DNA of 64,000 nt from Alphaproteobacteria bacterium (GTDB taxonomy: Bacteria > Pseudomonadota > Alphaproteobacteria > MPNO01): positions 458,732-522,731 of the forward strand of contig OZ251446.1 of assembly GCA_965242495.1 (NCBI GenBank), read 5' to 3'. Each line of letters begins with the position of its first letter. The stretch's first letter is position 1. The notes under the pieces are model-generated. The model saw only the letters and a list, made by a program, of their open reading frames with translations. It did not search any database and was not told where the DNA came from. The position numbers and the translations under genes were made by a program. This document shows, piece by piece, positions 15,899 through 41,440 of the stretch.

Positions 15899-18888
15899 CG
15901 CCCGATCCCGAGCCGGCGCAGCAGGCGGCGAAGCCAGTGCGCCGGGGGCGCGGCGCCGGAAGCCGGCGGTCGGGCGATCCGGGCCGCCAGGCGGTCGAAG
16001 AACTGGCCGACCAGGGCGCGCGCGGCGCCTTCGAGCATACGCCCGCCCACCGCCGCCGCCTTGCCGCCGATCTCGACCGTGTAGTCGTAGGAGACGCGGG
16101 CGCCGCCGTCGGCGGAATCGAGCCGCACCCGGCCTTCGCCCCGCGAGGAGCCGAGCGGCCCGGTCAGTTCGCCCGACAGCGTCGCCCTGTGCGGCGGATC
16201 GAGGTCGGACAGGCGGACGCCGGCGCGGAACCGCCCGCGCACCGGACCCACGCCGAGCGAGACTTCGGCGCGGTAGCTGTTCTCGCCCGTCCGCTCCAGC
16301 GCGTGGCAGCCGGGAATGACCGCGGCGAGCGCGTCCGGGTCGAGCAGGGCGCGCCAGACGTCTTCCCGCGCCGCGGGCAACAGCCTTTCGCCCCGGCCGG
16401 ACAGCGCGCGCGCGCCCGGGACGGCGGCGGGCGCGGCGTCGGTATCGTCCGCCTCGCCGGTTGCGCGCGCGGGCGGCGGGCGCTCCGCGCCGTGGATCAG
16501 CGCGCTCAGCCGATCCGGGGTGAGCGGCAAGGCGAGGTCGGCGGCGTCCAGCGCGTCGCACACCGCGTTGGCGACGCAGACGGGCGTGCTCATGCAGTTG
16601 CCCTCGCCGATGCCCTTGGCGCCCAGCGGCGTCACCGTGGACGGCGTCTCCATGTGCAGCACCACCGGCTCGGGCACCTCGGCCGCGGTCGGGCACAGAT
16701 AGTCGGCGAAGGTCCCGGACAGGAAGCTGCCGTCCTCGCCATAGGCGAACTCCTCGTAGAGGGCCGCGGCCACGCCCCAGGCGAAGGCGCCGTAGACCTG
16801 CCCGTTCGCCAGCAGCGGGTTCAGCAGCGCGCCGGAGTCGTGCATCGTGACGTATTTGTCGATGCGCGCCTCGCCGGTGTCGCGATCGACCTCGACCCCG
16901 CAATAATCGAACACGAAGCCGTAGGTGAGGGAGGTGTTGATCTGGTCGGCGTCGTTGGGCGGCTCCATCTCCGGCGGCGACCAGGAGCCGATCTCGCGGA
17001 TGCCGGGATCCATGCCGGCGGGCAGTTCCCCGGGCGACCAATGCGCGGTCCCCGCCGCCCGGTAGAAGGGGATGGCGTTGTCCGGATTGTCGACGGCGAA
17101 GACCTTGCCGGCGGCGAAGTCGAGGCGTTCGGGGGCCGCGTTGAGGGTCTGGCTGGCGATGCGGGCGATCTTGTCGCGCACCTTCCGCGCCGCCTTGTCG
17201 GCCGCCACCGCGGTCGAGGACGAGAAGCGCGCCGAATAGTTGCCGGTCGCGATCGACCAGGCGTCCTTCTGGGTGTCGTGTTCGAGGTTGACGCTGACGT
17301 CGTCGGGCCGGAGCCCCAACCGGTCGGCGACGATCTGGGACAGGATCGTCGCATGTCCCTGCCCCTGGGGGATCGAATCGGCGGTGACGCTCACCGCCCC
17401 CAGCGGGTCGACGTTGACCGTGGCGTTCGACACCGCCCCGCCCTTGGGGCTGCGGCGCCGCTCCGCCGCCGGCAGGATGTTGGTGATGTAGCCCATGTTG
17501 GATTGCGCCGGCTCGACGACGGCGGCGAAGCCGATGCCGTAGAGCCGGCCTTCGGCGCGCGCCTCGTCGCGACGCCGCCGGAGCTCCGCGAGCCCGCCCT
17601 CCTCGACGGCCGCGTCCACCGCGCGCGGGTAGTCGCCCGAGTCCAGGAGCGCGCCCGCGGCGGCGCGATAGGGAAAGGCGCCGGCGGGGATCAGGTTGCG
17701 GCGGATCACGGCCAGCGGATCGAGTCCGAGTTCGACCGCGATGCGCTGGATCAGCCGCTCGATGGCGTAGTACATCTGCGGCCCGCCGAAGCCGCGCACC
17801 ATGGCGGACGGGCATTTGTTGGTCATCACCACGCGGTTGACGACGGCGAGGTTGGCCACGTCGTAGGCGCCGGTGAGGACCCCGTGCATCCGGTAGAGCG
17901 GCCCCGGCATGGGCGCGCGCAGATAGGCGCCGTAATCGTCGAGCTGGTCGAAGCGAAAGGCGGCGATGCGGCCGTCGCGTCCGACCGCGGCTTCGATCTC
18001 GACGACCCGGTTGGGCGCGGCGGAAGCCGCGGTCAGGTGTTCGAGACGGTCCTCGACCCATTTGACCGGCTTGCCGGTCTTCTTCGAGGCGAGGCCCATC
18101 AGCACGACGTAGGGGAAGATCTGCACCTTGACGCCGAAGCCGCCGCCGGAGAAGGCCGGCGTCCGCAGCCGCAGCCGGGCGCCCGGCACCCTGAGGGCGC
18201 GGCTCATCACCGGATGGGTGCTGTACGGTCCCTGGAAATTGCAGGCGACGTCGTAGAGGTCGTCGTCGGGCCGGTAGTCGGCGACCACGACGTAGCCTTC
18301 CATGGGGGTCTGCGAATTGCGCGGGTAGCGCACGGTGAGCTTGACGCTGCGCTCGGCCTCGGCGAAGGCCTTGTCGGGGTCGCCATAGACGAAGTCGCGG
18401 ACCGAGACGACGTTGGAGCCGATGTCGGGGTAGAGGAGCGCCGCGCCGTCGCGGGCCGCGTTCTCGGGGTCCACCGCGGGATCGAGGACCCGGTAGTCCA
18501 CGTCGATATCCTCCAGCGCATCCTCGGCGAGGTAGCGGTCGGAGGCGATCACCGCCGCGACCGCCTCGCCGACGTAGCGGACGCGGTCCACCGCGAGGCA
18601 CCAGTGATGCATCGGCTGGCGGAGCACGGTCTGGAACGGCTCCGACATGGCCTTCGCGTCCTCGCCGGTGAGCACCGCGGCGACGCCCGGCCGGGCGAGG
18701 GCCGCGGCCGCGTCGATGCCGACGATCTCGGCATGGGCGTGGGGCGAGCGCAGGATCGCGGCGTGGAGGGCGCCGGCGCGGACCGGCAGATGGTCGGAGA
18801 ACAGCGCCCGTCCGGTCAGGAGCGCCGCATCCTCGACCCGCTCGACCGACCGCCCGACGAAGGTTTCCGTTTCGGCGCGCTCCGCCAT
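15895..18888 (-). CDS. molybdopterin-binding large subunit of xanthine-dehydrogenase/CO-DH family hydroxylase, fused to a C-terminal CoxG-like (SRPBCC) domain
   Basis: About 997 aa from ATG 18888. Aldehyde-oxidase/xanthine-DH a/b-hammerhead and Mo-pterin domains. The last ~160 aa (AREDVWRALLDPDALAAVIPGCHALERTG…) match CoxG. Confidence 0.85.
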   Translation of the reverse strand: MAERAETETFVGRSVERVEDAALLTGRALFSDHLPVRAGALHAAILRSPHAHAEIVGIDAAAALARPGVAAVLTGEDAKAMSEPFQTVLRQPMHHWCLAVDRVRYVGEAVAAVIASDRYLAEDALEDIDVDYRVLDPAVDPENAARDGAALLYPDIGSNVVSVRDFVYGDPDKAFAEAERSVKLTVRYPRNSQTPMEGYVVVADYRPDDDLYDVACNFQGPYSTHPVMSRALRVPGARLRLRTPAFSGGGFGVKVQIFPYVVLMGLASKKTGKPVKWVEDRLEHLTAASAAPNRVVEIEAAVGRDGRIAAFRFDQLDDYGAYLRAPMPGPLYRMHGVLTGAYDVANLAVVNRVVMTNKCPSAMVRGFGGPQMYYAIERLIQRIAVELGLDPLAVIRRNLIPAGAFPYRAAAGALLDSGDYPRAVDAAVEEGGLAELRRRRDEARAEGRLYGIGFAAVVEPAQSNMGYITNILPAAERRRSPKGGAVSNATVNVDPLGAVSVTADSIPQGQGHATILSQIVADRLGLRPDDVSVNLEHDTQKDAWSIATGNYSARFSSSTAVAADKAARKVRDKIARIASQTLNAAPERLDFAAGKVFAVDNPDNAIPFYRAAGTAHWSPGELPAGMDPGIREIGSWSPPEMEPPNDADQINTSLTYGFVFDYCGVEVDRDTGEARIDKYVTMHDSGALLNPLLANGQVYGAFAWGVAAALYEEFAYGEDGSFLSGTFADYLCPTAAEVPEPVVLHMETPSTVTPLGAKGIGEGNCMSTPVCVANAVCDALDAADLALPLTPDRLSALIHGAERPPPARATGEADDTDAAPAAVPGARALSGRGERLLPAAREDVWRALLDPDALAAVIPGCHALERTGENSYRAEVSLGVGPVRGRFRAGVRLSDLDPPHRATLSGELTGPLGSSRGEGRVRLDSADGGARVSYDYTVEIGGKAAAVGGRMLEGAARALVGQFFDRLAARIARPPASGAAPPAHWLRRLLRRLGIGR

Positions 18889-23204: not shown

Positions 23205-23292
23205 TTCGTCCGAAATGGATTCCCGCTTTCGCGGGAATGACGAGGGTTGCCGCGACGGCCTCCCTCGGGCCGTCGTCACAGGCTTCCCGCGC
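23205..23292. repeat. REP-like palindromic element pair (GGATTCCCGCTTTCGCGGGAATGACG core plus TTGCCGCGACGGCCTCCCTCGGGCCGTCGTCACA unit)
   Basis: Perfect hairpin ATTCCCGC-TTT-GCGGGAAT. Same units recur at 33150-33640 and 41285-41440. Confidence 0.55.
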
Positions 23293-32597: not shown

Positions 32598-32897
32598 TCA
32601 GGCGGCGGCCGGGGCGGGCTGCTCGAGGTCGGATTTGGCGATGAAGTGGACCTGGGGCCAGCCCGGGGAGTCCTCCGCCTCCACCCACACCTTCTCGATG
32701 ATCTCCGAGCGCACGTCCATCGAGCGTCCCTGGTCGATCAGCTGCTCGACCTTGCCGTCATAGACGATCCTCACGTCCAGCAAAGGGTCGTCGTAGTGGT
32801 CGAAGCCGGGCTTGACGTCGATGCTGACGATGGGGATGTCGGCGAAACGGGCCTTGAAGGCCGCCTCCGCGATCTCGCGGACCTGCCGTTCGTTCAT
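32598..32897 (-). CDS. hypothetical small protein (99 aa)
   Basis: ATG overlaps the stop of the upstream small ORF (ATGA). Coding-like codon usage. Confidence 0.45.
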   Translation of the reverse strand: MNERQVREIAEAAFKARFADIPIVSIDVKPGFDHYDDPLLDVRIVYDGKVEQLIDQGRSMDVRSEIIEKVWVEAEDSPGWPQVHFIAKSDLEQPAPAAA

Positions 32898-33142
32898 CTC
32901 GGAATCTCCTGGGACGGTCGTTGCCTGAACAATGCATGAGCGGCGAAGGCGCGCCTGGCCGCGGCGTCCGCCCGCTCGAACCGGTCGATGGCGCGCTCTG
33001 CGGAGACTATGTATTCCAGAACGTCGGACGTCCGGTAAGCCTCCACGTCCAGCGCATAGTCCGCCTTCTGCCGTTCGACCTGCAACACCACGAACGACTT
33101 GGCGAAGCTGCGGACCTCCGCGCAGTCATCGACGGGTCGCAT
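32894..33142 (-). CDS. hypothetical small protein (about 82 aa; C-terminal Rx4H HEPN-like motif RRAFAAH)
   Basis: ATG at 33142. Upstream in-frame sequence is REP-derived. Start uncertain. Confidence 0.35.
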   Translation of the reverse strand: MRPVDDCAEVRSFAKSFVVLQVERQKADYALDVEAYRTSDVLEYIVSAERAIDRFERADAAARRAFAAHALFRQRPSQEIPR

Positions 33143-33149
33143 CAAGCCG

Positions 33150-33640
33150 CGTCGCGGGCCGTGATTCCGAGGTCCCTGGATTCCCGCTTTCGAGCGTGTG
33201 AAGAAATCCCGAGACGTCCGCGTGGGCGTCGGTTCAGCCGACCGAGCGCGCGGAATCCCCGGGCGCGCGGGAATGACGAGGGAGGCCTGTGACGACGGCC
33301 CGAGGGAGGCCGTCGCGGCCTCCCCCGTCATTCCCCCGGTCGGGCGGGGGGCAGGCTCCGCGAAAGAGCATGGGACGAAACCCTTGGCGTATCCGCCTCG
33401 AGTCGATGGCTTTCCTGGGGCCATCGTCACGCCCCCCTTCCGTCATTCCCGCGAAAGCGGGAATCCATATTCGTATCCCGTTTCTCGCTTCCGTGGGGAC
33501 GAAGGGCCTGTGACGTCGGCTCGAGGTACGCCCAAGGACCCGTCCTTTCCCGCCCTGGATTCCCGCTTTCGCGGGAATGACGAGGAGGGTGCGACGATGG
33601 CCCCGGGAAGGCCATCGGCTCGAGGCGGATGCGTCGGACT
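33150..33640. repeat. cluster of nested REP-like palindromic units in both orientations
   Basis: Contains TCATTCCCGCGAAAGCGGGAATCCATATTCGTATCCCG, GGATTCCCGCTTTCGCGGGAATGACGAGG, GGCGTATCCGCCTCGAGTCGATGGC and its inverse. Track ORFs here (VIPAKAGIH…) are artefacts. Confidence 0.6.
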
Positions 33641-34837: not shown

Positions 34838-37528
34838 TTATGACGCAGGTTCGATGTTCCGCGCCCGCTCCGGCCGCTCCAGCTTCTCCGTCAGCTGCGC
34901 GCGCGGGTCCTTGCCGTCGATCTCCTTCTCGACGACGAGGAACAGGCCCCGGCCCTGGGACGCGCGCTCCCATAGTTCGCCGACGGCGCTCTTCTCGGCC
35001 GCGTCGGCGCCGTCGGCGAGGTGCGCGCCCTTGTATTCGACGACGAGCAGCCGTCCGTCGTCGAGTTCCGCCGCGAAGTCGGGGTAGAACCAGTCCGAAG
35101 CCGTCGGCAGCCGGAACGACTCCGGGTGGCGGGCGACGTTGCGGATCCAGTGCTTGACGCCGGGCAGGGAGTCGAGAGCCTGCGCGCAGCGGACTTCCTC
35201 GCCGTCGTCGTCGCCGTCGAAGGCGGGGACCGCGTCCGGGCCGAGAAAGTGCCGGTTCGGCCGCCAGCGCCCGCGGTAGCGGCGCTCGTCGGCATACATG
35301 CCGTCCCGGAACGCGAAGGCGCAGCCGAAGGAGACTTGCGGCCGGGTCTCCGGCGCGAACAGGCGGCGTTGGTAGACCGCCTCGCGCTCCCGGCGGCGGA
35401 TGGCGGCGATCCGGTCGCGGACCTTGCGGGCGAGCTGGAACTTGGCCAGCGTGAGCGCGGCGACGGAGAGGCCGCGCGCCGCGGTCAGATGGCTCAGGAG
35501 GCCGGACAGCCAGGCGATCAGGTCGCTCTGGTCGACGTCGTCGGCGCGGACCTCGCGGTCGAGCCACAGCGTCAGGTTCTGCGAGGTCCAGCCCTCTACG
35601 TCGACGTCGAGCATGAATTGCGCCTCCGCGCCGGTCTGCGCGTAGGTCACGCGGTCGCCGTCGCGGTCGCCGCGGACGTCGATCTCGAACCCGCGCGCCG
35701 TCTCGCGGATCGAGAACTCGCTTGCGTCGGGCCGGTAGGGATGGGCGGCGAGCGACCAGTCGTGACTCTCCATGAACAGGTCGGTATCGGCGAGTTCCAG
35801 CTCCCCCTGCTCCATCGCGACGAGGGCCGGGACCTCGAACCGCACGCCCCGCGCCGACGGCGGAAACCGATGCTCTTCCTCATGGCGGAACCGCGCGGCC
35901 GCTTCCGCGAAGCCCGCCTGCGCGGCCGGGGGCAGGGCGTCCAGGATCGCCTTCTCCCGCGCGTCGCCCACCCAGCCGTCGACCGCGATCTCGACCGCGC
36001 CGTCGTCCGTCGCGCGCGCCGCCGCGCCTTCCGGCAACGCGCCTTCGAGCGCCGCCGCGGCTTCGGGCGGCAAGGCGACCGCATGGCGGAACACGGGTTG
36101 CGGCCTGTCGCGCGCGGCGAACAGGCCGCGGTTCGGGTCGAGCTCCGGTTGCGCCGGCTCGACGTTCTCCTTCGCCTCGTCCTCCTCGAACCCCATCGCC
36201 ACCAGCCTGTCGCTCAGGTCCTTCGCCGCGGCGGCGAAGTCGGGTTCGTGAACGAAGGCGTAGGCCTTGTTCAGGGCGGCGTGCGCGCGCCGTTCGGCGT
36301 AGGGCATCCGCAGCACCCGGCCCAGCAGCTGCTCCACGTCGGCGGCGCTCCGGATCCGCGACACCGAGCAGAAGACGTAGGCGAAGGAGCAGTCCCACCC
36401 CTCCTTCAGGGCCTGGACGGTGACGACGTGCTCGACCGGGCAGGCGGGGTCGAACAGGTCGACGCCGTCGAGCTCGCGCTGGTCGCCGGTGGCGACGGCG
36501 ATCCGCTCCGCCGGGACGCGCTCGACCTCGATCAGATGCCGCTTCAGCGCCTCGGCCGTCACCTCGCGGTTCTTGGGTTGCGCCTGGAACAGCGCCACCG
36601 GGCGGACGTAGCCGGGGTCGGCCTTCGCCGTCTCGGCCAGCCTCGCGCGCTCGGCGACGGCGGCGCTCACCGCGCCTCGCCAGTCGTCGTGCTCGGCGAG
36701 CGCCACCGGCAGCTTGATCATCGCCTCGCGCTTCAGCTCCGACGCCCGGGCGTTGAACAGGACGTTCGAACCCTTGCGCGGCGTGGCCGTGAACTCGATC
36801 ACCGCGCAGGGGTTCACCCGCGCCTGCATCTCGCGCGTGAGTCCGGTGACGGCGTTCTGCGCCTCGTCGACGATCATCAGCGGGCGGTGGAGATGGAGCA
36901 GGTTGGCGAAGGAGAACTTGGCCCCGCCCTCGGGGAGTCGCTCCAGCCCCGGCGCGGCGGCCGCGGCGGCGGGCAGGGCGGCGAAATGCGCCTCCATGTC
37001 CTCGTGATGGGCGTAGACCTTGCGGCCTTCGGTGTTCTCGACCCGCAGGGTCTGGATGGTGCCGACGACGACGCAGCACTTGTCGCGGAGGTCGTGGGGG
37101 CGGAGCTGGGCGAAGTCGGCTATGTCGAAGACGCGCACGCGGCCCGCGAACGCCGCGTCGAGGGCGCGGCGGCACGGGTGGCGCGGGTTCTTCAGCGCCT
37201 CCGCGGTCTGGCGGCGGATGATGCTGGTCGGCGCCAGCCACAGGACGAGGGGATGGTCCCGCTCGATCCAGGCGCGGCGGGCGACGGCGACGGCGTGGGC
37301 GGCGAGGAGCGTCTTGCCGCCGCCGGTCGGCAGGCGCAGGCAGACATGCGGCGTGGCGGGCAGGCCGGCGAGCGGCCGGTAGGTCGCGGCGCGGCGACCG
37401 AGCCGCGCCGCCAGTTCCGGTTCGGCGATGAGCTTCGCATAGGCCGCCGCCGGCCCGGCGATCCGCGCTTCCTCGAGAAAGCGCCGCAGCGTGTCGAGCG
37501 CCTCGGTCTGGTAGGGTTTGAGCTCCAC
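34838..37528 (-). CDS. res: Type III restriction enzyme Res subunit (SF2 helicase plus PD-(D/E)xK nuclease)
   Basis: Walker A PTGGGKT, motif II MIVDEAQN, motif III FTATP. C-terminal LLVVEYKG nuclease motif. GTG start at 37528. Confidence 0.8.
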   Translation of the reverse strand: MELKPYQTEALDTLRRFLEEARIAGPAAAYAKLIAEPELAARLGRRAATYRPLAGLPATPHVCLRLPTGGGKTLLAAHAVAVARRAWIERDHPLVLWLAPTSIIRRQTAEALKNPRHPCRRALDAAFAGRVRVFDIADFAQLRPHDLRDKCCVVVGTIQTLRVENTEGRKVYAHHEDMEAHFAALPAAAAAAPGLERLPEGGAKFSFANLLHLHRPLMIVDEAQNAVTGLTREMQARVNPCAVIEFTATPRKGSNVLFNARASELKREAMIKLPVALAEHDDWRGAVSAAVAERARLAETAKADPGYVRPVALFQAQPKNREVTAEALKRHLIEVERVPAERIAVATGDQRELDGVDLFDPACPVEHVVTVQALKEGWDCSFAYVFCSVSRIRSAADVEQLLGRVLRMPYAERRAHAALNKAYAFVHEPDFAAAAKDLSDRLVAMGFEEDEAKENVEPAQPELDPNRGLFAARDRPQPVFRHAVALPPEAAAALEGALPEGAAARATDDGAVEIAVDGWVGDAREKAILDALPPAAQAGFAEAAARFRHEEEHRFPPSARGVRFEVPALVAMEQGELELADTDLFMESHDWSLAAHPYRPDASEFSIRETARGFEIDVRGDRDGDRVTYAQTGAEAQFMLDVDVEGWTSQNLTLWLDREVRADDVDQSDLIAWLSGLLSHLTAARGLSVAALTLAKFQLARKVRDRIAAIRRREREAVYQRRLFAPETRPQVSFGCAFAFRDGMYADERRYRGRWRPNRHFLGPDAVPAFDGDDDGEEVRCAQALDSLPGVKHWIRNVARHPESFRLPTASDWFYPDFAAELDDGRLLVVEYKGAHLADGADAAEKSAVGELWERASQGRGLFLVVEKEIDGKDPRAQLTEKLERPERARNIEPAS

Positions 37529-37545
37529 CGGTCAGGCCCGCGCGG

Positions 37546-37980
37546 TCACGGGCGCGTTCCACCTCGCGCTTCGCCGAGACGCGCCAATGCTTCGCGGGCG
37601 GTTACGACGGGTATGCCTTCGACGTTCCCGAGCGCGAGGACGTGCTTCTTGTCGCCGGAAACGATCATGTCGGCTTCTCCGGCGATGGCCGCCGCCAGGA
37701 TCGGATTGTCCTTGGGATCGGGAGACAGGTTCACGGTCGGCAGATCTTCGAGGACAAGAGCGCGCGCGCCGATGTTCTCGATGATCCTCGCCGCCTCGTC
37801 GGTATCGAGACACCTTTGCAGGCGAGGCCGCGCGAGAACTTCGGCGAACTCGGCCATTTGCGCGGTGGACGTCACGAGCCCGATCTCGCCGCGCAACCAT
37901 GTCCGATAGAGCCTGTCCGGCGGCGTGCCCCTGACGATGAGGGCTGCAACAAGGATATTGGTATCAAGGACGACCCGCAC
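37546..37980 (-). CDS. PIN-domain toxin (TIGR00305-like)
   Basis: MRVVLDTNILVAA…GDKKHVL. Overlaps upstream RHH gene by 17 nt. Confidence 0.8.
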   Translation of the reverse strand: MRVVLDTNILVAALIVRGTPPDRLYRTWLRGEIGLVTSTAQMAEFAEVLARPRLQRCLDTDEAARIIENIGARALVLEDLPTVNLSPDPKDNPILAAAIAGEADMIVSGDKKHVLALGNVEGIPVVTAREALARLGEARGGTRP

Positions 37981-38200
37981 GCACGGCGTCCACTTCCTCG
38001 TCGATCAGGTCGAGGATGGCCTGTCCGTCGATCCGGGCGTTGCGCTCCTTGACGTCGTGAACGGTGGCGTCCAGAACGCGGCGGCGCACCGCTTCGTCGA
38101 CGAAGCGCGAGAGATCGCTCTCTTCGACCCCGTTGCGCGCGAGGAAGGCGCGGACCGTCCGATCCGTCTTCTCGGGAATGGAGAGATTCCATCGAACCAT
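37964..38200 (-). CDS. ribbon-helix-helix (CopG-type) antitoxin
   Basis: ATG at 38200 with GGAGA RBS. 78 aa; MVRWNLSIPEKTDRTVRAFLARNG typical partner of PIN toxins. Confidence 0.65.
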   Translation of the reverse strand: MVRWNLSIPEKTDRTVRAFLARNGVEESDLSRFVDEAVRRRVLDATVHDVKERNARIDGQAILDLIDEEVDAVRAGRP

Positions 38201-38204
38201 CGGG

Positions 38205-38290
38205 CATTCTCCAGATCGTGGACATCTGTACACATAGTGTATACTGTACACAAAAACAATGTACACATAAAATTAACACACACATAAACT
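38205..38290 (-). promoter_or_regulatory. AT-rich (about 35% GC) putative promoter/operator with three TGTACA palindromes
   Basis: CTGTACACATAGTGTATACTGTACACAAAAACAATGTACACAT immediately upstream of the RHH/PIN pair. Confidence 0.4.
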
Positions 38291-38342
38291 GCCGCATGAT
38301 GGTGCGCGCCGTCAATCTTCGCGCGCGCCGACGCGCGCCCGT

Positions 38343-39887
38343 TCAGCCCCGCGCGGTCACGTCGTAGGGGGTCTGTCGGAAGGTCAGCCGTTCGGCCTTC
38401 AGCGTCGCGTCCCGGAAGGCCGAGCGCGCGGCGTAGACGGTGAGCGGCCCGTCGAAGCCGCCCGCCGCGGCGCGGACGGCCGCCAGCGTGCGGCGCGTCA
38501 GCACGTTGCCGCCGCCGGCGGAGCGGTCGCGCAGCACGCCGTTGTAGAGCAGCGCGTAGCCGCGCCCTTCATGCGCGCCGAGGAAGGGGCTGGGATCGGC
38601 CGGGGCGGTCCATGGCCGGCCGGTCTCGGTGAACCAGACATGGGCGGCGAGGACGGGAAAGGCCACGTCCGGCCGGATGCGGCCGTCGGCGTCGAAGGCG
38701 GGCGGGGCGAGGCGGTGGAAGCGGAAGCCGCCGCCGCCCTTCCAGCCGACGGCTTCGGAGACGCCGCCCTGCTCGCCCTCGACGACCTTGCGCAGGCGCG
38801 GGGCGCAATGGGTGACGGCGTGTTCGCCCATCTCGACGCCGATCCAGCGCCGGCCCATCTTGTGCGCGACCGCGGCCGTGGTTCCGGAGCCGAGGAAGGA
38901 GTCGAGCACGAGATCGCCTGGGTCCGTGGCGATGTGAATGATTCTTGCAACTAACGCCTCAGGTTTCGGGGTAGAAAACGGTGTTTCTCCCTCAAACAGA
39001 TTCACGATTTCGCCTTTTGCTGTTCCAGTTGTACCAACCTCTTTATGGGACCAATGTGTCGAAGGAACAAGACCAACGCGAACTTCAGATAAGAATTTTT
39101 TGAGGCGAGGAGCATTATTTCCTGTCTCTCCAAACCATATCCGATTTTCCGCACACATTTCACGAAAGCGATCTTCCGTGTATAGCCAACATCGGCCTGG
39201 TGGAGGATCAACCATTCTTCCTGATGGAAGGGTGATCGTGAAAAATTGATCTCTTCTTCGTCCCTTTTCGGCCTTGGCGTGCATAGGAAGGGATGACCAA
39301 TCACCACGAGGGTCATTATCCGGATTCTTGAAACGAGCTATCTGTTCTTCAGAACTTGGCAAAGGATTCCTGATTTCACGCCAAATACCACGATTCTTCG
39401 CAAAAATCAGAATGTTGTCATGAACGTTTGAAATATCTGTCCGATTCTCCCTCGTGTGTGTACGTTGCCAAAATATATCCGCTACAAAGGAGTCGCGACC
39501 GAACACTTCATCCATGATGACCTTGAGATAGTGCCCCTCGTTGTCGTCGATGGAGACCCAGATCGAGCCATCGTCCGCCAGCAGGTCGCGCAAGAGCTCC
39601 AGCCGCGGCCACATCATGGCGAGCCATTTGGCGTGCTCCAGGCTGTCGTCGTAATGCGCGAAGGCCGAGCGCGTGTTGTAGGGCGGGTCGATGTAGATGC
39701 ACTTCACCTGCCCGGCGTAGAACGGCAACAGCGCCTTCAACGCCTCCAGGTTGTCGCCCTGGATCAACATGTTGTCCGCCGCCGCCTCCCCGGCGGAGAG
39801 CGCCGGCGCCTCCTCCAGCAGCCGGTAGGGCGCGCGCGACGCCGCGCCGATGTCCTCGTCCCGCGTCAACCAATGCAGCGTCGGCAT
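38343..39887 (-). CDS. mod: Type III R-M Mod subunit (N6-adenine DNA methyltransferase)
   Basis: DPPYN motif IV, SAM-binding FLGSGTT. Central target-recognition segment 38940-39480 is about 45% GC. Confidence 0.85.
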   Translation of the reverse strand: MPTLHWLTRDEDIGAASRAPYRLLEEAPALSAGEAAADNMLIQGDNLEALKALLPFYAGQVKCIYIDPPYNTRSAFAHYDDSLEHAKWLAMMWPRLELLRDLLADDGSIWVSIDDNEGHYLKVIMDEVFGRDSFVADIFWQRTHTRENRTDISNVHDNILIFAKNRGIWREIRNPLPSSEEQIARFKNPDNDPRGDWSSLPMHAKAEKGRRRDQFFTITLPSGRMVDPPPGRCWLYTEDRFREMCAENRIWFGETGNNAPRLKKFLSEVRVGLVPSTHWSHKEVGTTGTAKGEIVNLFEGETPFSTPKPEALVARIIHIATDPGDLVLDSFLGSGTTAAVAHKMGRRWIGVEMGEHAVTHCAPRLRKVVEGEQGGVSEAVGWKGGGGFRFHRLAPPAFDADGRIRPDVAFPVLAAHVWFTETGRPWTAPADPSPFLGAHEGRGYALLYNGVLRDRSAGGGNVLTRRTLAAVRAAAGGFDGPLTVYAARSAFRDATLKAERLTFRQTPYDVTARG

Positions 39888-39890
39888 CGG

Positions 39891-41228
39891 CTATCCGTCC
39901 GCCTTAATCGGAACGCCGCGCATGGCCTCCTCGTATTCCTTGATCCACCGCTCGGCCTCTTCCTTCGTGTAGGTGCCGGTTATGGCGCCGCTGTCTTCCG
40001 GCAGTTCGTTGCTTGCCGGCTTGCCGATATGCGGTTCCAGTGTCTCTCGCAACTCTTTCGTTTTCTTCTCAGAAAGATTAGCAGTAAGAGAGTCTAAGAT
40101 TTTCTGGTCAAGACCATTCTGAAGAAAGGATCCGGACAAATCGCTCTCTCGGCCGATCCTCACGTGGATACAATTCTTGAACGATGGACATATGATAAAT
40201 TGGCAAGTAACTCCTTGCAGTTTCGTCCTGCTAAGGATCGCCCCTTGTAGTTGCGCTTCGTCAAGGCTCGCCCCTTGTAGCTGCGCTCCGCTAAGGATCG
40301 CCCCTTGCAGTTGTACTCCGTCAAGGATTGACCCTTGCAATTGCGCATCGGCAAGGTTCGCCCCTTGTAGTTGCGCTCCATCAAGGCTCGTCCCTTGCAG
40401 TTGCACCTCGTAAAGGTTTGCTTCTTGCAGTTGAGCCCCGAAAAGGTTTGCTCCTTGCAGTTGCGCATCGTAAAGGTTCGCTTCTTGCAATTGTGTCTCC
40501 TCAAGATCCGCCTCTTGCAGTTGCACCCTCAGAAGGGATGCGTTTTGCAGTTGTGCCTGGAAAAGATTCACCCCTCGTAGTTGCGCACCGGAAAGGCTCA
40601 CTTCTTGCAGGCGCGCCCTGGTAAGATCTGCTCCGTTCAGCCAGCTTCCCTGCAAGTCGATACGGCAACCTCTGAAGATCTCGTGCTCCTGCACGAACAA
40701 CAGAGTCAACAAACTCTGAATCTCCGTCGAGGGCTCCGATTTGTGTTTCTCCTGGTACCCGTCCTCCCCCGTCGTCCGGCGGATGTGGGCGCAGAGGATG
40801 TCCAGCGCCGTCTGGCGCATGTCTTCGGTGTTCTGCGCCAGATGGAAGAGCTCGTAGGCCCCGCCCAGGCGCACCGAGTCCGACTCGTGGCCCAGATGTT
40901 CGATGGCGTTCTTCAGCCGCTCCTGCCGCCGCCCGTCCTCCGCGCCCTGGTTGGCCGCCGCCTGCGCGTTCGCGGCCTTTTCCATCGCCACGGCGCGGCG
41001 GTTGGCGATCACGGCTCCGATGGCCAGCAGCACGCCGCCCATGCCGACGCCCAGATATTCGAGAACCCGGAATTTCTTCTCCACGCCGAAGAGGTAATAG
41101 GCCAATTTCGGTTCTTCGGAAGCCATGACGATGGCCATGACGACCAGAAGGAACGCGAACAGACGGACCAGCCGCGCGACGCGGTCCGCCGGAAAGAGCG
41201 CCCGCACGACTCTACGCAACATGTTCAT
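39891..41228 (-). CDS. membrane-anchored pentapeptide-repeat protein
   Basis: Two N-terminal TM helices, then more than 25 tandem A(D/N)LxxAQLQG pentapeptide units. Stop 3 nt before mod ATG. Repeat-encoding DNA is AT-rich and internally repetitive. Confidence 0.75.
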   Translation of the reverse strand: MNMLRRVVRALFPADRVARLVRLFAFLLVVMAIVMASEEPKLAYYLFGVEKKFRVLEYLGVGMGGVLLAIGAVIANRRAVAMEKAANAQAAANQGAEDGRRQERLKNAIEHLGHESDSVRLGGAYELFHLAQNTEDMRQTALDILCAHIRRTTGEDGYQEKHKSEPSTEIQSLLTLLFVQEHEIFRGCRIDLQGSWLNGADLTRARLQEVSLSGAQLRGVNLFQAQLQNASLLRVQLQEADLEETQLQEANLYDAQLQGANLFGAQLQEANLYEVQLQGTSLDGAQLQGANLADAQLQGSILDGVQLQGAILSGAQLQGASLDEAQLQGAILSRTKLQGVTCQFIICPSFKNCIHVRIGRESDLSGSFLQNGLDQKILDSLTANLSEKKTKELRETLEPHIGKPASNELPEDSGAITGTYTKEEAERWIKEYEEAMRGVPIKADG

Positions 41229-41284: not shown

Positions 41285-41440
41285 TCCTGGTCAGGAAACG
41301 GGATACGAATATGGATTCCCGCTTTCGCGGGAATGACGAGGGGGTTGTTCGCGGAGCCTGCCCCCGGCTTGACCGGGGGAATGACGAATTGTCGGCGTAT
41401 CCGCCTCGAGCCGATGGCCCTCCTGGAGCCGTCGGCGCAG
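41285..41440. repeat. composite REP-like element
   Basis: GGATACGAATATGGATTCCCGCTTTCGCGGGAATGACGAGG … GGCGTATCCGCCTCGAGCCGATGGC, matching units in the 33150-33640 cluster. Confidence 0.55.

Follow-up and report, generated by a model that had tools for sequence, protein, structure and literature searches.

Type III systems of restriction-modification (R-M) count as two-gene systems composed of mod and res. Mod2 hemi-methylates asymmetric sites, and cleavage by the Mod-Res complex needs two unmethylated sites in inverse orientation and follows ATP-dependent sliding. The locus described here lies in a 64,000-nucleotide stretch of DNA from an alphaproteobacterium of the GTDB lineage MPNO01 (GenBank assembly GCA_965242495.1, contig OZ251446.1, positions 458,732 to 522,731 of the forward strand). 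"The window" denotes this whole stretch, and coordinates are counted from its first letter unless a related locus is named. In it, mod is preceded by a gene for a pentapeptide-repeat protein (PRP) and separated from res by a toxin-antitoxin (TA) pair. We consider it probable, if well short of assured, that the locus is a copy of a horizontally mobile three-gene Type III cassette, PRP-mod-res, which was later split by insertion of the TA pair.

Two other groups of proteins offer points of comparison. Qnr, MfpA and AlbG are soluble dimers of ~180-220 aa that carry pentapeptide repeats and target gyrase. PrrC and RloC combine an ABC-type ATPase with an anticodon nuclease, and PrrC is embedded in the Type IC EcoprrI locus. 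To our knowledge, the functions of pentapeptide-repeat proteins are mostly unknown. One paper names pentapeptide repeats as a kind of sensor repeat in the NACHT defence proteins of bacteria (bioRxiv 10.1101/2022.07.19.500537).

Gene order and Type III identity

Five co-oriented genes make up the locus, here in transcription order together with the junction between the first two:

41228..39891, minus strand: PRP gene, 445 aa (Pfam Pentapeptide, 7e-39)
39885..39905, minus strand: PRP stop/mod start junction, with AAGGCGGA just before TAG-CCG-ATG in a translational-coupling geometry
39887..38343, minus strand: mod, 514 aa, Type III beta-class N6-adenine methyltransferase
38200..37964, minus strand: RHH_6 antitoxin gene, 78 aa (Pfam RHH_6, 7.6e-19)
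37980..37546, minus strand: PIN_3 toxin gene, 144 aa, GTG start (Pfam PIN_3, 3.6e-20, profile positions 1-115 of 115)
37528..34838, minus strand: res, 896 aa, GTG start, Type III restriction subunit with an SF2 helicase

An earlier note on this DNA had proposed the order PRP-mod-RHH-PIN-res on the minus strand, and both the list of open reading frames (ORFs) and the profile matches bear it out. The spacings given there can likewise be read in the sequence: 3 nt (TAG-CCG-ATG) from the PRP stop to the mod ATG with a ribosome-binding site upstream, a 17-nt overlap of the RHH and PIN genes, and 17 nt between the PIN TGA and the res GTG. The ORF listing extends both PRP and RHH further upstream; homologues show the shorter starts, which the earlier note also used, to be correct. 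Within the window, mod and res are separated by 818 nt occupied by the TA cassette, with gene order and strand retained.

Judged from profile matches, mod and res are a Type III R-M pair. Mod aligns with the PADLOC model MTase_III PDLC03644 at 1.7e-181 (profile positions 1-541 of 542) and with Pfam N6_N4_Mtase at 6.5e-46, and its sequence matches in the PDB include the Type III Mod 6k0w (1.8e-47) and EcoP15I Mod (4zcf_A, 5.2e-35). Its motifs are ordered DPPYN (aa 67-71), target-recognition domain (TRD), FLGSGTT (FxGxG; aa 333-339). Res aligns with REase_III PDLC03650 at 3.7e-182 (profile positions 3-879 of 898) and with Pfam ResIII at 1.3e-12. The motifs listed for the two proteins beforehand are all present in the translations, namely DPPYN and FLGSGTT in Mod and GGGKT, DEAQ, TATP and VVEYKG in Res, the last as part of a C-terminal PD-(D/E)XK-like motif, YPDF...VVEYKG. 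The Type III assignment made earlier held up in the profile searches. A caveat attaches to Res: a sequence search of the PDB copy with it matched no chain. Because of this missing sequence-level match, Res would belong to a subfamily distant from EcoP15I Res, a comparison that depends on entry 4zcf including the EcoP15I Res subunit.

Linkage of PRP to mod across genomes

A scan of one genome per species with the PRP family alignment returned 79 loci, all in metagenome-assembled genomes (MAGs); L001-L079, together with L083, number the related loci used in comparisons. By label, the hosts are Alpha- and Gammaproteobacteria, Nitrospirales, Latescibacterota, Candidatus Binatia, Gemmatimonadota, Acidobacteria, Thermodesulfobacteriota and Entotheonella, which amounts to at least six phylum-level lineages; the closest are uncultured alphaproteobacterial MAG chromosomes. 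A full-length mod lies directly downstream on the same strand in 43 of the 79 loci and Res, also on the same strand, in 38-42, while fragments of mod or res immediately follow PRP in another 6-7. In the linked loci Res is 60-86% identical to that of the window.

The junction between the two genes is tight. In 37 of 46 PRP/mod pairs the gap is no more than 3 nt; 24 of these have 1-nt stop/start overlaps (TGATG in 15, TAATG in nine), and three carry a window-like TAGCCGATG. The translational coupling that had been proposed from the 3-nt gap in the window is thus a recurrent geometry. A simple terminator scan, itself crude, detected none between PRP and mod. Distances between the non-repeat parts of PRP correlate with those between Res proteins (Mantel r=0.58, p<=0.0005). 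No other gene family is linked to PRP to a comparable degree, the recurrent ones being PRP, Mod, Res, antisense ORFs and scattered small TA genes. The possibility, set down beforehand as damaging, that homologous PRP genes would never neighbor R-M genes elsewhere is decisively contradicted by the 43 loci. By its neighborhoods, the PRP gene is a separable module that is very often the leading, coupled gene of a Type III clade with Res at 60% identity or above.

Several observations weigh against PRP as a functional partner of the R-M system. Conservation next to R-M genes proved common within one clade and neither universal nor obligatory: 36 of the 79 PRP loci are solitary, with no common neighbor. 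Solitary and linked PRPs are intermixed, as the nearest neighbor has the same label at a frequency of 0.55 against 0.50 expected (p=0.22). When the search was anchored on Mod, giving 80 metagenome loci with Mod 37-81% identical, PRP was found in none, and 51 of these loci have at least 1.4 kb of upstream sequence; Res in this set is mostly only ~40% identical to the window Res. PRP is also missing from the plain mod-res pairs of three plasmid relatives (one each from an Erythrobacteraceae strain, from Vibrio and from Acinetobacter), and the sponge-derived L083 has the same TRD type with a different gene upstream of mod. Other defence genes are wedged between PRP and mod in 5-6 loci (among the insert positions are L004:12741-14915, L063:11999-15957, L076:11831-15010 and L007:11529-12064), and comprise a KAP NTPase, a Schlafen/AlbA_2 gene with HATPase_c_4, a gene for a SIR2_2 protein of 1059 aa that matches Piwi weakly, and a pair of small TA genes. 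The conserved PRP-mod-res order may also be partly a matter of common descent after recent transfer of the cassette.

Two kinds of rearrangement are seen among the related loci. PRP is tandemly duplicated in L002:10001-12771, L010:10001-12721, L022, L038, L049 and L069. Remnants of mod, comprising its first 33-35 codons and 91% identical to the window, follow a PRP in, for example, L002 and L008:11216-11314, and are sometimes followed in turn by a second PRP and an intact mod. These duplications and remnants suggest that cassettes have recombined with one another, or that mod-res has been lost and gained repeatedly beside PRP.

PRP could instead be an autonomous gene for defence, exclusion or mobile-element functions that merely travels with mod-res or offers it a promoter-providing landing site. 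The intermixing of linked copies with the solitary ones, which make up nearly half of the family, agrees with this view, as do the defence genes found between PRP and mod, and the mod 5' remnants in L002 and L008 would fit repeated gain and loss beside a resident PRP. Distant relatives with the same transmembrane (TM), cap and PRP segments occur as single genes on Rhodococcus, Anabaena and Pseudanabaena plasmids, in neighborhoods containing an integrase, AbiEii, TIR, DUF262/HEPN and TA genes. Against it, gaps of 3 nt or less and overlaps in 37 of 46 pairs, in a clade where Res may be only ~60% identical, would be hard to keep without selection for co-expression, and a linkage of this extent is confined to mod and res. 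Nor does PADLOC lend support to an independent defence role, as none of its models matches PRP. Autonomy of PRP is a possible, somewhat doubtful explanation.

Architecture and fold of PRP

The PRP of the window is predicted to consist of a TM hairpin (aa ~17-37 and ~57-77), a stalk helix extending to ~112, a helical cap (113-189), a right-handed beta-helix (190-342) and a small helical domain (343-440). In the AlphaFold2 model, with a pLDDT of 78.9 overall and above 90 in the beta-helix (aa 190-330), the N-terminal helices span residues 16-36 and 52-112, and the first part of the second is hydrophobic. The model thereby supports the two TM helices read earlier from the translation, and two hydrophobic N-terminal helices are conserved across the family. 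This suggests an inner-membrane protein with an N-in/C-in hairpin. Because the N-terminus is Arg-rich and NRR follows the second hydrophobic helix, the beta-helix is expected to be cytoplasmic and tethered to the membrane; stalk, cap, variable beta-helix and C-terminal domain would then all face the cytoplasm. No signal peptide or secretion signal is evident in the translation or the model.

A homologue search places PRP in a family of 400-600-aa proteins with full-length identities of 50-65% to the window copy. Common to them are two hydrophobic helices, a linker rich in Ala and Gln, a strongly conserved helical stretch (RQERLKNAIEHLGH..DSVRLGGAYELFHLA), AxLQGAxLxx decapeptides and a conserved C-terminal domain of ~100 aa. 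Their alignment has many invariant residues in the N- and C-terminal domains and a variable number of decapeptides. An exhaustive search with the N-terminal 190 residues gave 188 clusters (50% identity) at E<=1e-30 and 2690 at E<=1e-3. A paralogue in the same genome, P0026, lies outside the window. The decapeptides correspond to a tandem repeat in the DNA:

40213..40610, minus strand: tandem 30-bp repeat array of PRP, decapeptide AxLQGAxLxx (TRF period 30, 10.4 copies; periods of 60 and 120 as well)

This array codes for most of the beta-helix and has a GC content at third codon positions (GC3) of 0.51. Across 89 copies of the family, the beta-helix ranges from 86 to 283 aa, a 3.3-fold variation. 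Such a protein, its ends conserved and its middle changing fast, would suit a role as spacer or tether, or one as a recognition surface that varies.

A second alternative follows from the fold. Like Qnr, MfpA and AlbG, PRP might be a DNA mimic that occupies the DNA-binding cleft of Mod or Res, and serve as an anti-restriction or establishment regulator for a host that is still unmethylated. The best Foldseek matches in the PDB are HetL, Np275/276, MfpA, AlbG and QnrB1 (E-values of 1e-9 to 1e-7 for MfpA, AlbG and Qnr), and the beta-helix of the window is acidic (pI 4.05, net charge -10). As the first gene of the operon, PRP would be synthesized early, and a Vibrio relative carries a small regulator gene upstream of mod. 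The Foldseek matches are generic PRP beta-helices, and nothing was found in the PDB for the N-terminal cap or the C-terminal domain; with the membrane anchor, these conserved extra domains are unlike known mimics. Scores against the NCBIfam models for Qnr (39.5 bits, cut-off 240) and MfpA (47.4, cut-off 360) are far too low. Net charges of the beta-helix in the 89 copies run from -16 to +16 around a median of +1, with -2 to +4 as interquartile range and only 6% at -8 or below. On charge and length, DNA mimicry is rejected as a family trait, and with it the rationale given in the earlier note. We think that PRP is not a Qnr-like DNA mimic, and the regulatory role built on such mimicry seems unlikely.

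A TA cassette inserted between mod and res

The DNA between mod and res has the structure of a discrete insertion, with the following parts:

37551..38338, minus strand: inserted TA cassette of 788 bp (AT-rich leader, RHH, PIN), absent from L001 and L002
38339..38361, minus strand: left 23-bp direct repeat CGTGACCGCGCGGGGCTGAACGG, covering the mod 3' end, stop codon and spacer
37528..37550, minus strand: right 23-bp direct repeat CGTGACCGCGCGGGCCTGACCGG, covering the PIN stop codon and ending on the first base of the res GTG
38227-38234, 38245-38252 and 38260-38267, minus strand: three TGTGTACA repeats, spaced by 15 and 18 nt and lying 27-67 nt upstream of the RHH start

The mod-before-res order had been described as canonical and the intervening TA pair as an exception, and the closest relatives agree: they have Res 85% identical at the amino acid level and contiguous mod and res genes ~4 nt apart. 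At the nucleotide level, L001, L002 and L010 are 89-90% identical to the window in res and 87-91% in the 3' part of mod. The alignments with L001 and L002 are interrupted between 38339 and 37550, and the mod-res gap is ~4-10 nt in these two loci and in nearly all 80 metagenome relatives. The two 23-bp direct repeats are identical at 21 of 23 positions by local alignment. Since the right copy ends on the res start, res retains the ancestral upstream context of mod stop and res start.

The pair itself has many relatives. PIN scores 60 bits against TIGR00305 (cut-off 29) and has 1443 homologues at E<=1e-10, many of them 75-80% identical. RHH_6 (78 aa) and PIN_3 (141-143 aa) genes stand beside RepA_C/ParA/ParG in eight contigs and beside thiC in one. 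The RHH homologues, also 78 aa, have the same start, lie upstream of PIN_3 and are about three-quarters identical as judged by reading the translations. The leader of the window cassette measures 142 bp at 51% GC. The three TGTACA palindromes noticed there earlier are present and can be refined to the three TGTGTACA copies, which are the only ones in the 64 kb, against 0.07 expected; none of 100 shuffles reached three. They are candidate operator or promoter elements of the TA cassette. Homologous RHH/PIN cassettes have AT-rich leaders of their own with related, non-identical motifs, and TGTGTACA itself is not conserved in them. A simple sigma-70 scan of the leader, again a crude one, found no minus-strand promoter.

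Cargo of other kinds, 0.5-2 kb in length, occupies the mod-res junction in 19 of 42 related loci (among them L004, L006, L007, L015, L016, L019, L027, L032, L044, L045, L054, L059, L063, L064, L073 and L076). It includes HicAB-like pairs of DUF1902 and HicA, GIY-YIG genes, an HD-domain gene with a partner, DUF3800, DUF6979 and an opposite-strand gene without a Pfam match, which to us reads presumably as an Rpn/DUF4351-type gene. In three cases the 3' end of mod is duplicated before res, over 36 bp in L019, 15 bp in L032 and 18 bp in L045. The mod-res junction of this Type III clade thus appears to be a recurrent insertion hotspot. On the sequence evidence, RHH/PIN is a stand-alone VapBC-like module and its presence at the junction a secondary, lineage-specific insertion. 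The TA pair as an integral part of the R-M system is ruled out by its absence from the closest relatives, the 23-bp duplication and the heterogeneous cargo at the junction.

A related proposal would make RHH/PIN a PrrC-like guardian of the R-M system, in which inhibition of the restriction complex by a phage would release PIN and so bring about abortive infection. That R-M loci carry accessory genes as add-on modules is an established concept (PMC12707154). The pair shares the orientation of the operon in which it is embedded, res translation starts 17 nt after the PIN stop, and TA-like or nuclease cargo is found at the junction again and again. That cargo is also heterogeneous and unrelated from locus to locus, the closest relatives do without RHH/PIN, and close relatives of the pair sit beside plasmid replication and partition genes or a thiamine gene with no R-M system nearby. 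Homology to PrrC is absent, and PADLOC gave one weak PIN match (PDC-M11A, 0.0014) and none for RHH. A guardian role is accordingly improbable.

Exchange of modules within the cassette

Composition sets two segments of the locus apart. GC content falls to 0.46-0.51 over 38850-39600 and to 0.48-0.57 over 39900-40800 in a window of 70% GC, so that the two AT-rich patches described earlier, in the mod TRD and the PRP repeats, are real by GC scan. In GC3 they are sharper, with 0.36 for the TRD and 0.51 for the beta-helix of PRP compared to 0.84-0.95 in the rest of PRP, mod and res. The first patch coincides with a defined feature:

38988..39497, minus strand: mod TRD (aa ~131-300), GC 0.45, GC3 0.36 against 0.88-0.94 in the flanking mod segments

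Mod of the window and of L001 are 92% identical in the core and 34% in the TRD. L063 and L076 have TRDs that are 68-70% identical to the one in the window, and cores of only 73-75% identity. Nucleotide matches of 87-93% to L001, L002 and L010 stop at both TRD borders, and distances between TRDs barely follow those between Res proteins (Mantel r=0.15), in contrast to the Mod core (r=0.81). Of the two modules that had been proposed as horizontally swapped, the TRD stands. The PRP repeats share the low GC3; for this region no donor was identified, the best nucleotide identity being 75-77% over the whole gene (L001, L002).

The low-GC patches are nonetheless not peculiar to this copy. In almost all of 36 related cassettes, GC3 is low in the TRD and in the beta-helix and C-terminal domain of PRP, whatever the GC content of the host, and TRD and repeat segments seem to be exchanged faster than the core in all of them. 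As its TRD is foreign and low in GC, the window copy should recognize a different site from its nearest relatives. TRD exchange is known from the Type III mod genes of Haemophilus influenzae, which have a hypervariable central region (PMC1557822).

Possible spread between lineages and repeated palindromic elements

Over MAGs labelled as at least six phylum-level lineages, protein identity stays at 60-85% for PRP, the Mod core and Res. Such a pattern has the look of transfer of the PRP-mod-res set between phyla, perhaps inside sponge microbiomes. Origin from the sponge Aplysina aerophoba is documented for MPMZ bin75 (L021, a PRP locus) and MKWU (the PRP-less L083) (PMC5649159); sponge origin is confirmed for these two loci, and the names of the other records are consistent with sponge studies. 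Sponge symbionts have been reported to be enriched in R-M and TA systems (PMC5649159, PMC8163846), and a survey of sponge MAGs considered evidence for transfer between phyla to be still lacking (PMC8163846). Several of the MAGs hold two or more PRP loci.

The least probable of the alternatives, that PRP is a host-interaction repeat protein of sponge symbionts hitch-hiking with R-M genes on mobile DNA, draws on the restriction of its family to MAGs (two of the loci compared, one with and one without PRP, being of checked sponge origin), on its several copies per genome, tandem duplications and fast repeat-number change, and on the reported enrichment of both repeat proteins and R-M systems in sponge symbionts (PMC8163846), and it has against it a repeat domain predicted to be cytoplasmic, with no secretion signal evident, and the lack of any obvious rationale for translational coupling to a DNA methyltransferase.

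Palindromic elements resembling repetitive extragenic palindromes (REP) or miniature inverted-repeat transposable elements (MITE) surround the locus:

41295..41439, directly upstream of PRP: REP/MITE-like palindromic elements, inverted copies of 33326-33636

The inverted repeats I3 (44 nt, 100%), I5 (39 nt, 92%) and I4 (47 nt, 85%) bracket a 7.8-kb block that contains a hydrolase gene, res, the TA pair, mod and PRP. The core of the element is CGTCATTCCCGCGAAAGCGGGAATCCA, and a further copy lies at 23216-23242. Exact 27-mers of it occur near the ends of PRP/R-M cassettes at L035:7745-7771 and at L056:7208-7234, 11566 and 16006-16032, in hosts labelled Nitrospirales and 'Enterobacteriaceae', and near-copies in seven more loci. 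The element may be a MITE that moves between these bacteria. A composite transposon bounded by the inverted elements was not adopted as an explanation, the element being dispersed (copy at 23216, other phyla).

Downstream of the hydrolase gene, two overlapping small minus-strand ORFs (99 and 178 aa) are found at 32598-33430. Neither has a Pfam match and both overlap the cluster of REP-like elements; the 178-aa ORF is probably inflated by translated repeat elements.

A working model

If the locus is a three-gene cassette split by a TA insertion, the operon would be transcribed from upstream of PRP, and PRP and Mod would be made together. Read-through from PRP-mod would add to expression of the TA pair and res. 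RHH-PIN would repress its own promoter at the TGTGTACA repeats while also receiving this read-through, and it would add post-segregational killing that stabilizes the cassette. Established knowledge of Type III enzymes leads one to expect that the TRD determines an asymmetric site, that Mod2 methylates this site on one strand, and that Mod-Res cuts DNA with unmethylated, inversely oriented sites after ATP-dependent sliding.

The role of PRP in this scheme is a more tentative matter. It could be a separable accessory partner, co-produced with Mod, that tethers or gates the R-M complex at the inner membrane, the entry site of foreign DNA, or senses invader proteins by way of the fast-changing surface of its beta-helix; this reading carries well under even confidence and about the same weight as an autonomous PRP. 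A bolder version, possible and admittedly speculative, treats PRP as the third component of a new Type III subclass, a beta-helix anchored in the membrane, facing the cytoplasm and made in a fixed ratio with Mod, whose rapidly exchanged repeat surface and conserved end domains recruit, gate or trigger Mod-Res at the envelope, and the mod-res junction as a dedicated docking site into which further modules for defence or addiction are plugged by a duplication-generating mechanism. If true, PRP could restrict DNA at its point of entry or sense proteins of the invader.

The R-M system, the TA pair and the exchange of TRDs are all of already-known kinds. Three features were not found in the searched literature or in PADLOC: the clade-wide coupled PRP leader, its spread across phyla, and the junction hotspot with duplicated mod ends. 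The literature searched contained no description of PRP with Type III R-M systems, with R-M systems of sponge symbionts or with defence islands in this sense. A third gene in stop/start overlap with mod across phyla would imply an unrecognized layer of control or localization of restriction, and its coupling to mod would give pentapeptide-repeat proteins a testable role. The hotspot for TA and nuclease genes bears on how defence islands grow and on why such cargo is hard to lose. The cassette is also a concrete candidate for transfer between phyla, possibly in sponge microbiomes, in which specificity and repeat domains turn over faster than the core.

Comparison with known systems

The TA pair of the window is closest in kind to plasmid TA systems of the VapBC type, with which it shares an RHH_6 gene upstream of and overlapping PIN_3 and an AT-rich leader with palindromic repeats. 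Its location alone sets it apart, at the exact boundary of mod and res and with 23 bp of the target duplicated. With PrrC in EcoprrI it has in common the position of a gene foreign to restriction inside an R-M operon, which in the window is presumed to be co-transcribed. Its genes are those of a generic RHH/PIN system, unlike PrrC, and the unrelated cargo at the same junction elsewhere suggests a hotspot rather than a dedicated guardian.

PRP and the Qnr/MfpA/AlbG group share the right-handed quadrilateral beta-helix fold. PRP differs from them in its length of 445 aa and in its TM hairpin, stalk, conserved helical cap and C-terminal domain, and its family is neither consistently anionic nor of fixed beta-helix length. 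As in the mod genes of H. influenzae, conserved mod arms flank an exchanged center beside a conserved res. In contrast to those genes, no phase-variable repeat tract was seen in mod of the window; here the exchange is visible as a drop in GC3 from ~0.9 to 0.36 and recurs across phyla.

With classical Type III systems such as EcoP15I and EcoP1I, the locus shares the order of mod followed by res, a Mod with the beta-class adenine methyltransferase layout, central TRD and homology to EcoP15I Mod, and a Res that combines SF2 helicase motifs with a PD-(D/E)XK-like motif at its C-terminus. It represents a shorter subfamily (Mod 514 aa, Res 896 aa) and departs from the classical systems by a third, coupled upstream gene, PRP, across the whole clade and, in the window copy, by the TA pair that splits mod from res.

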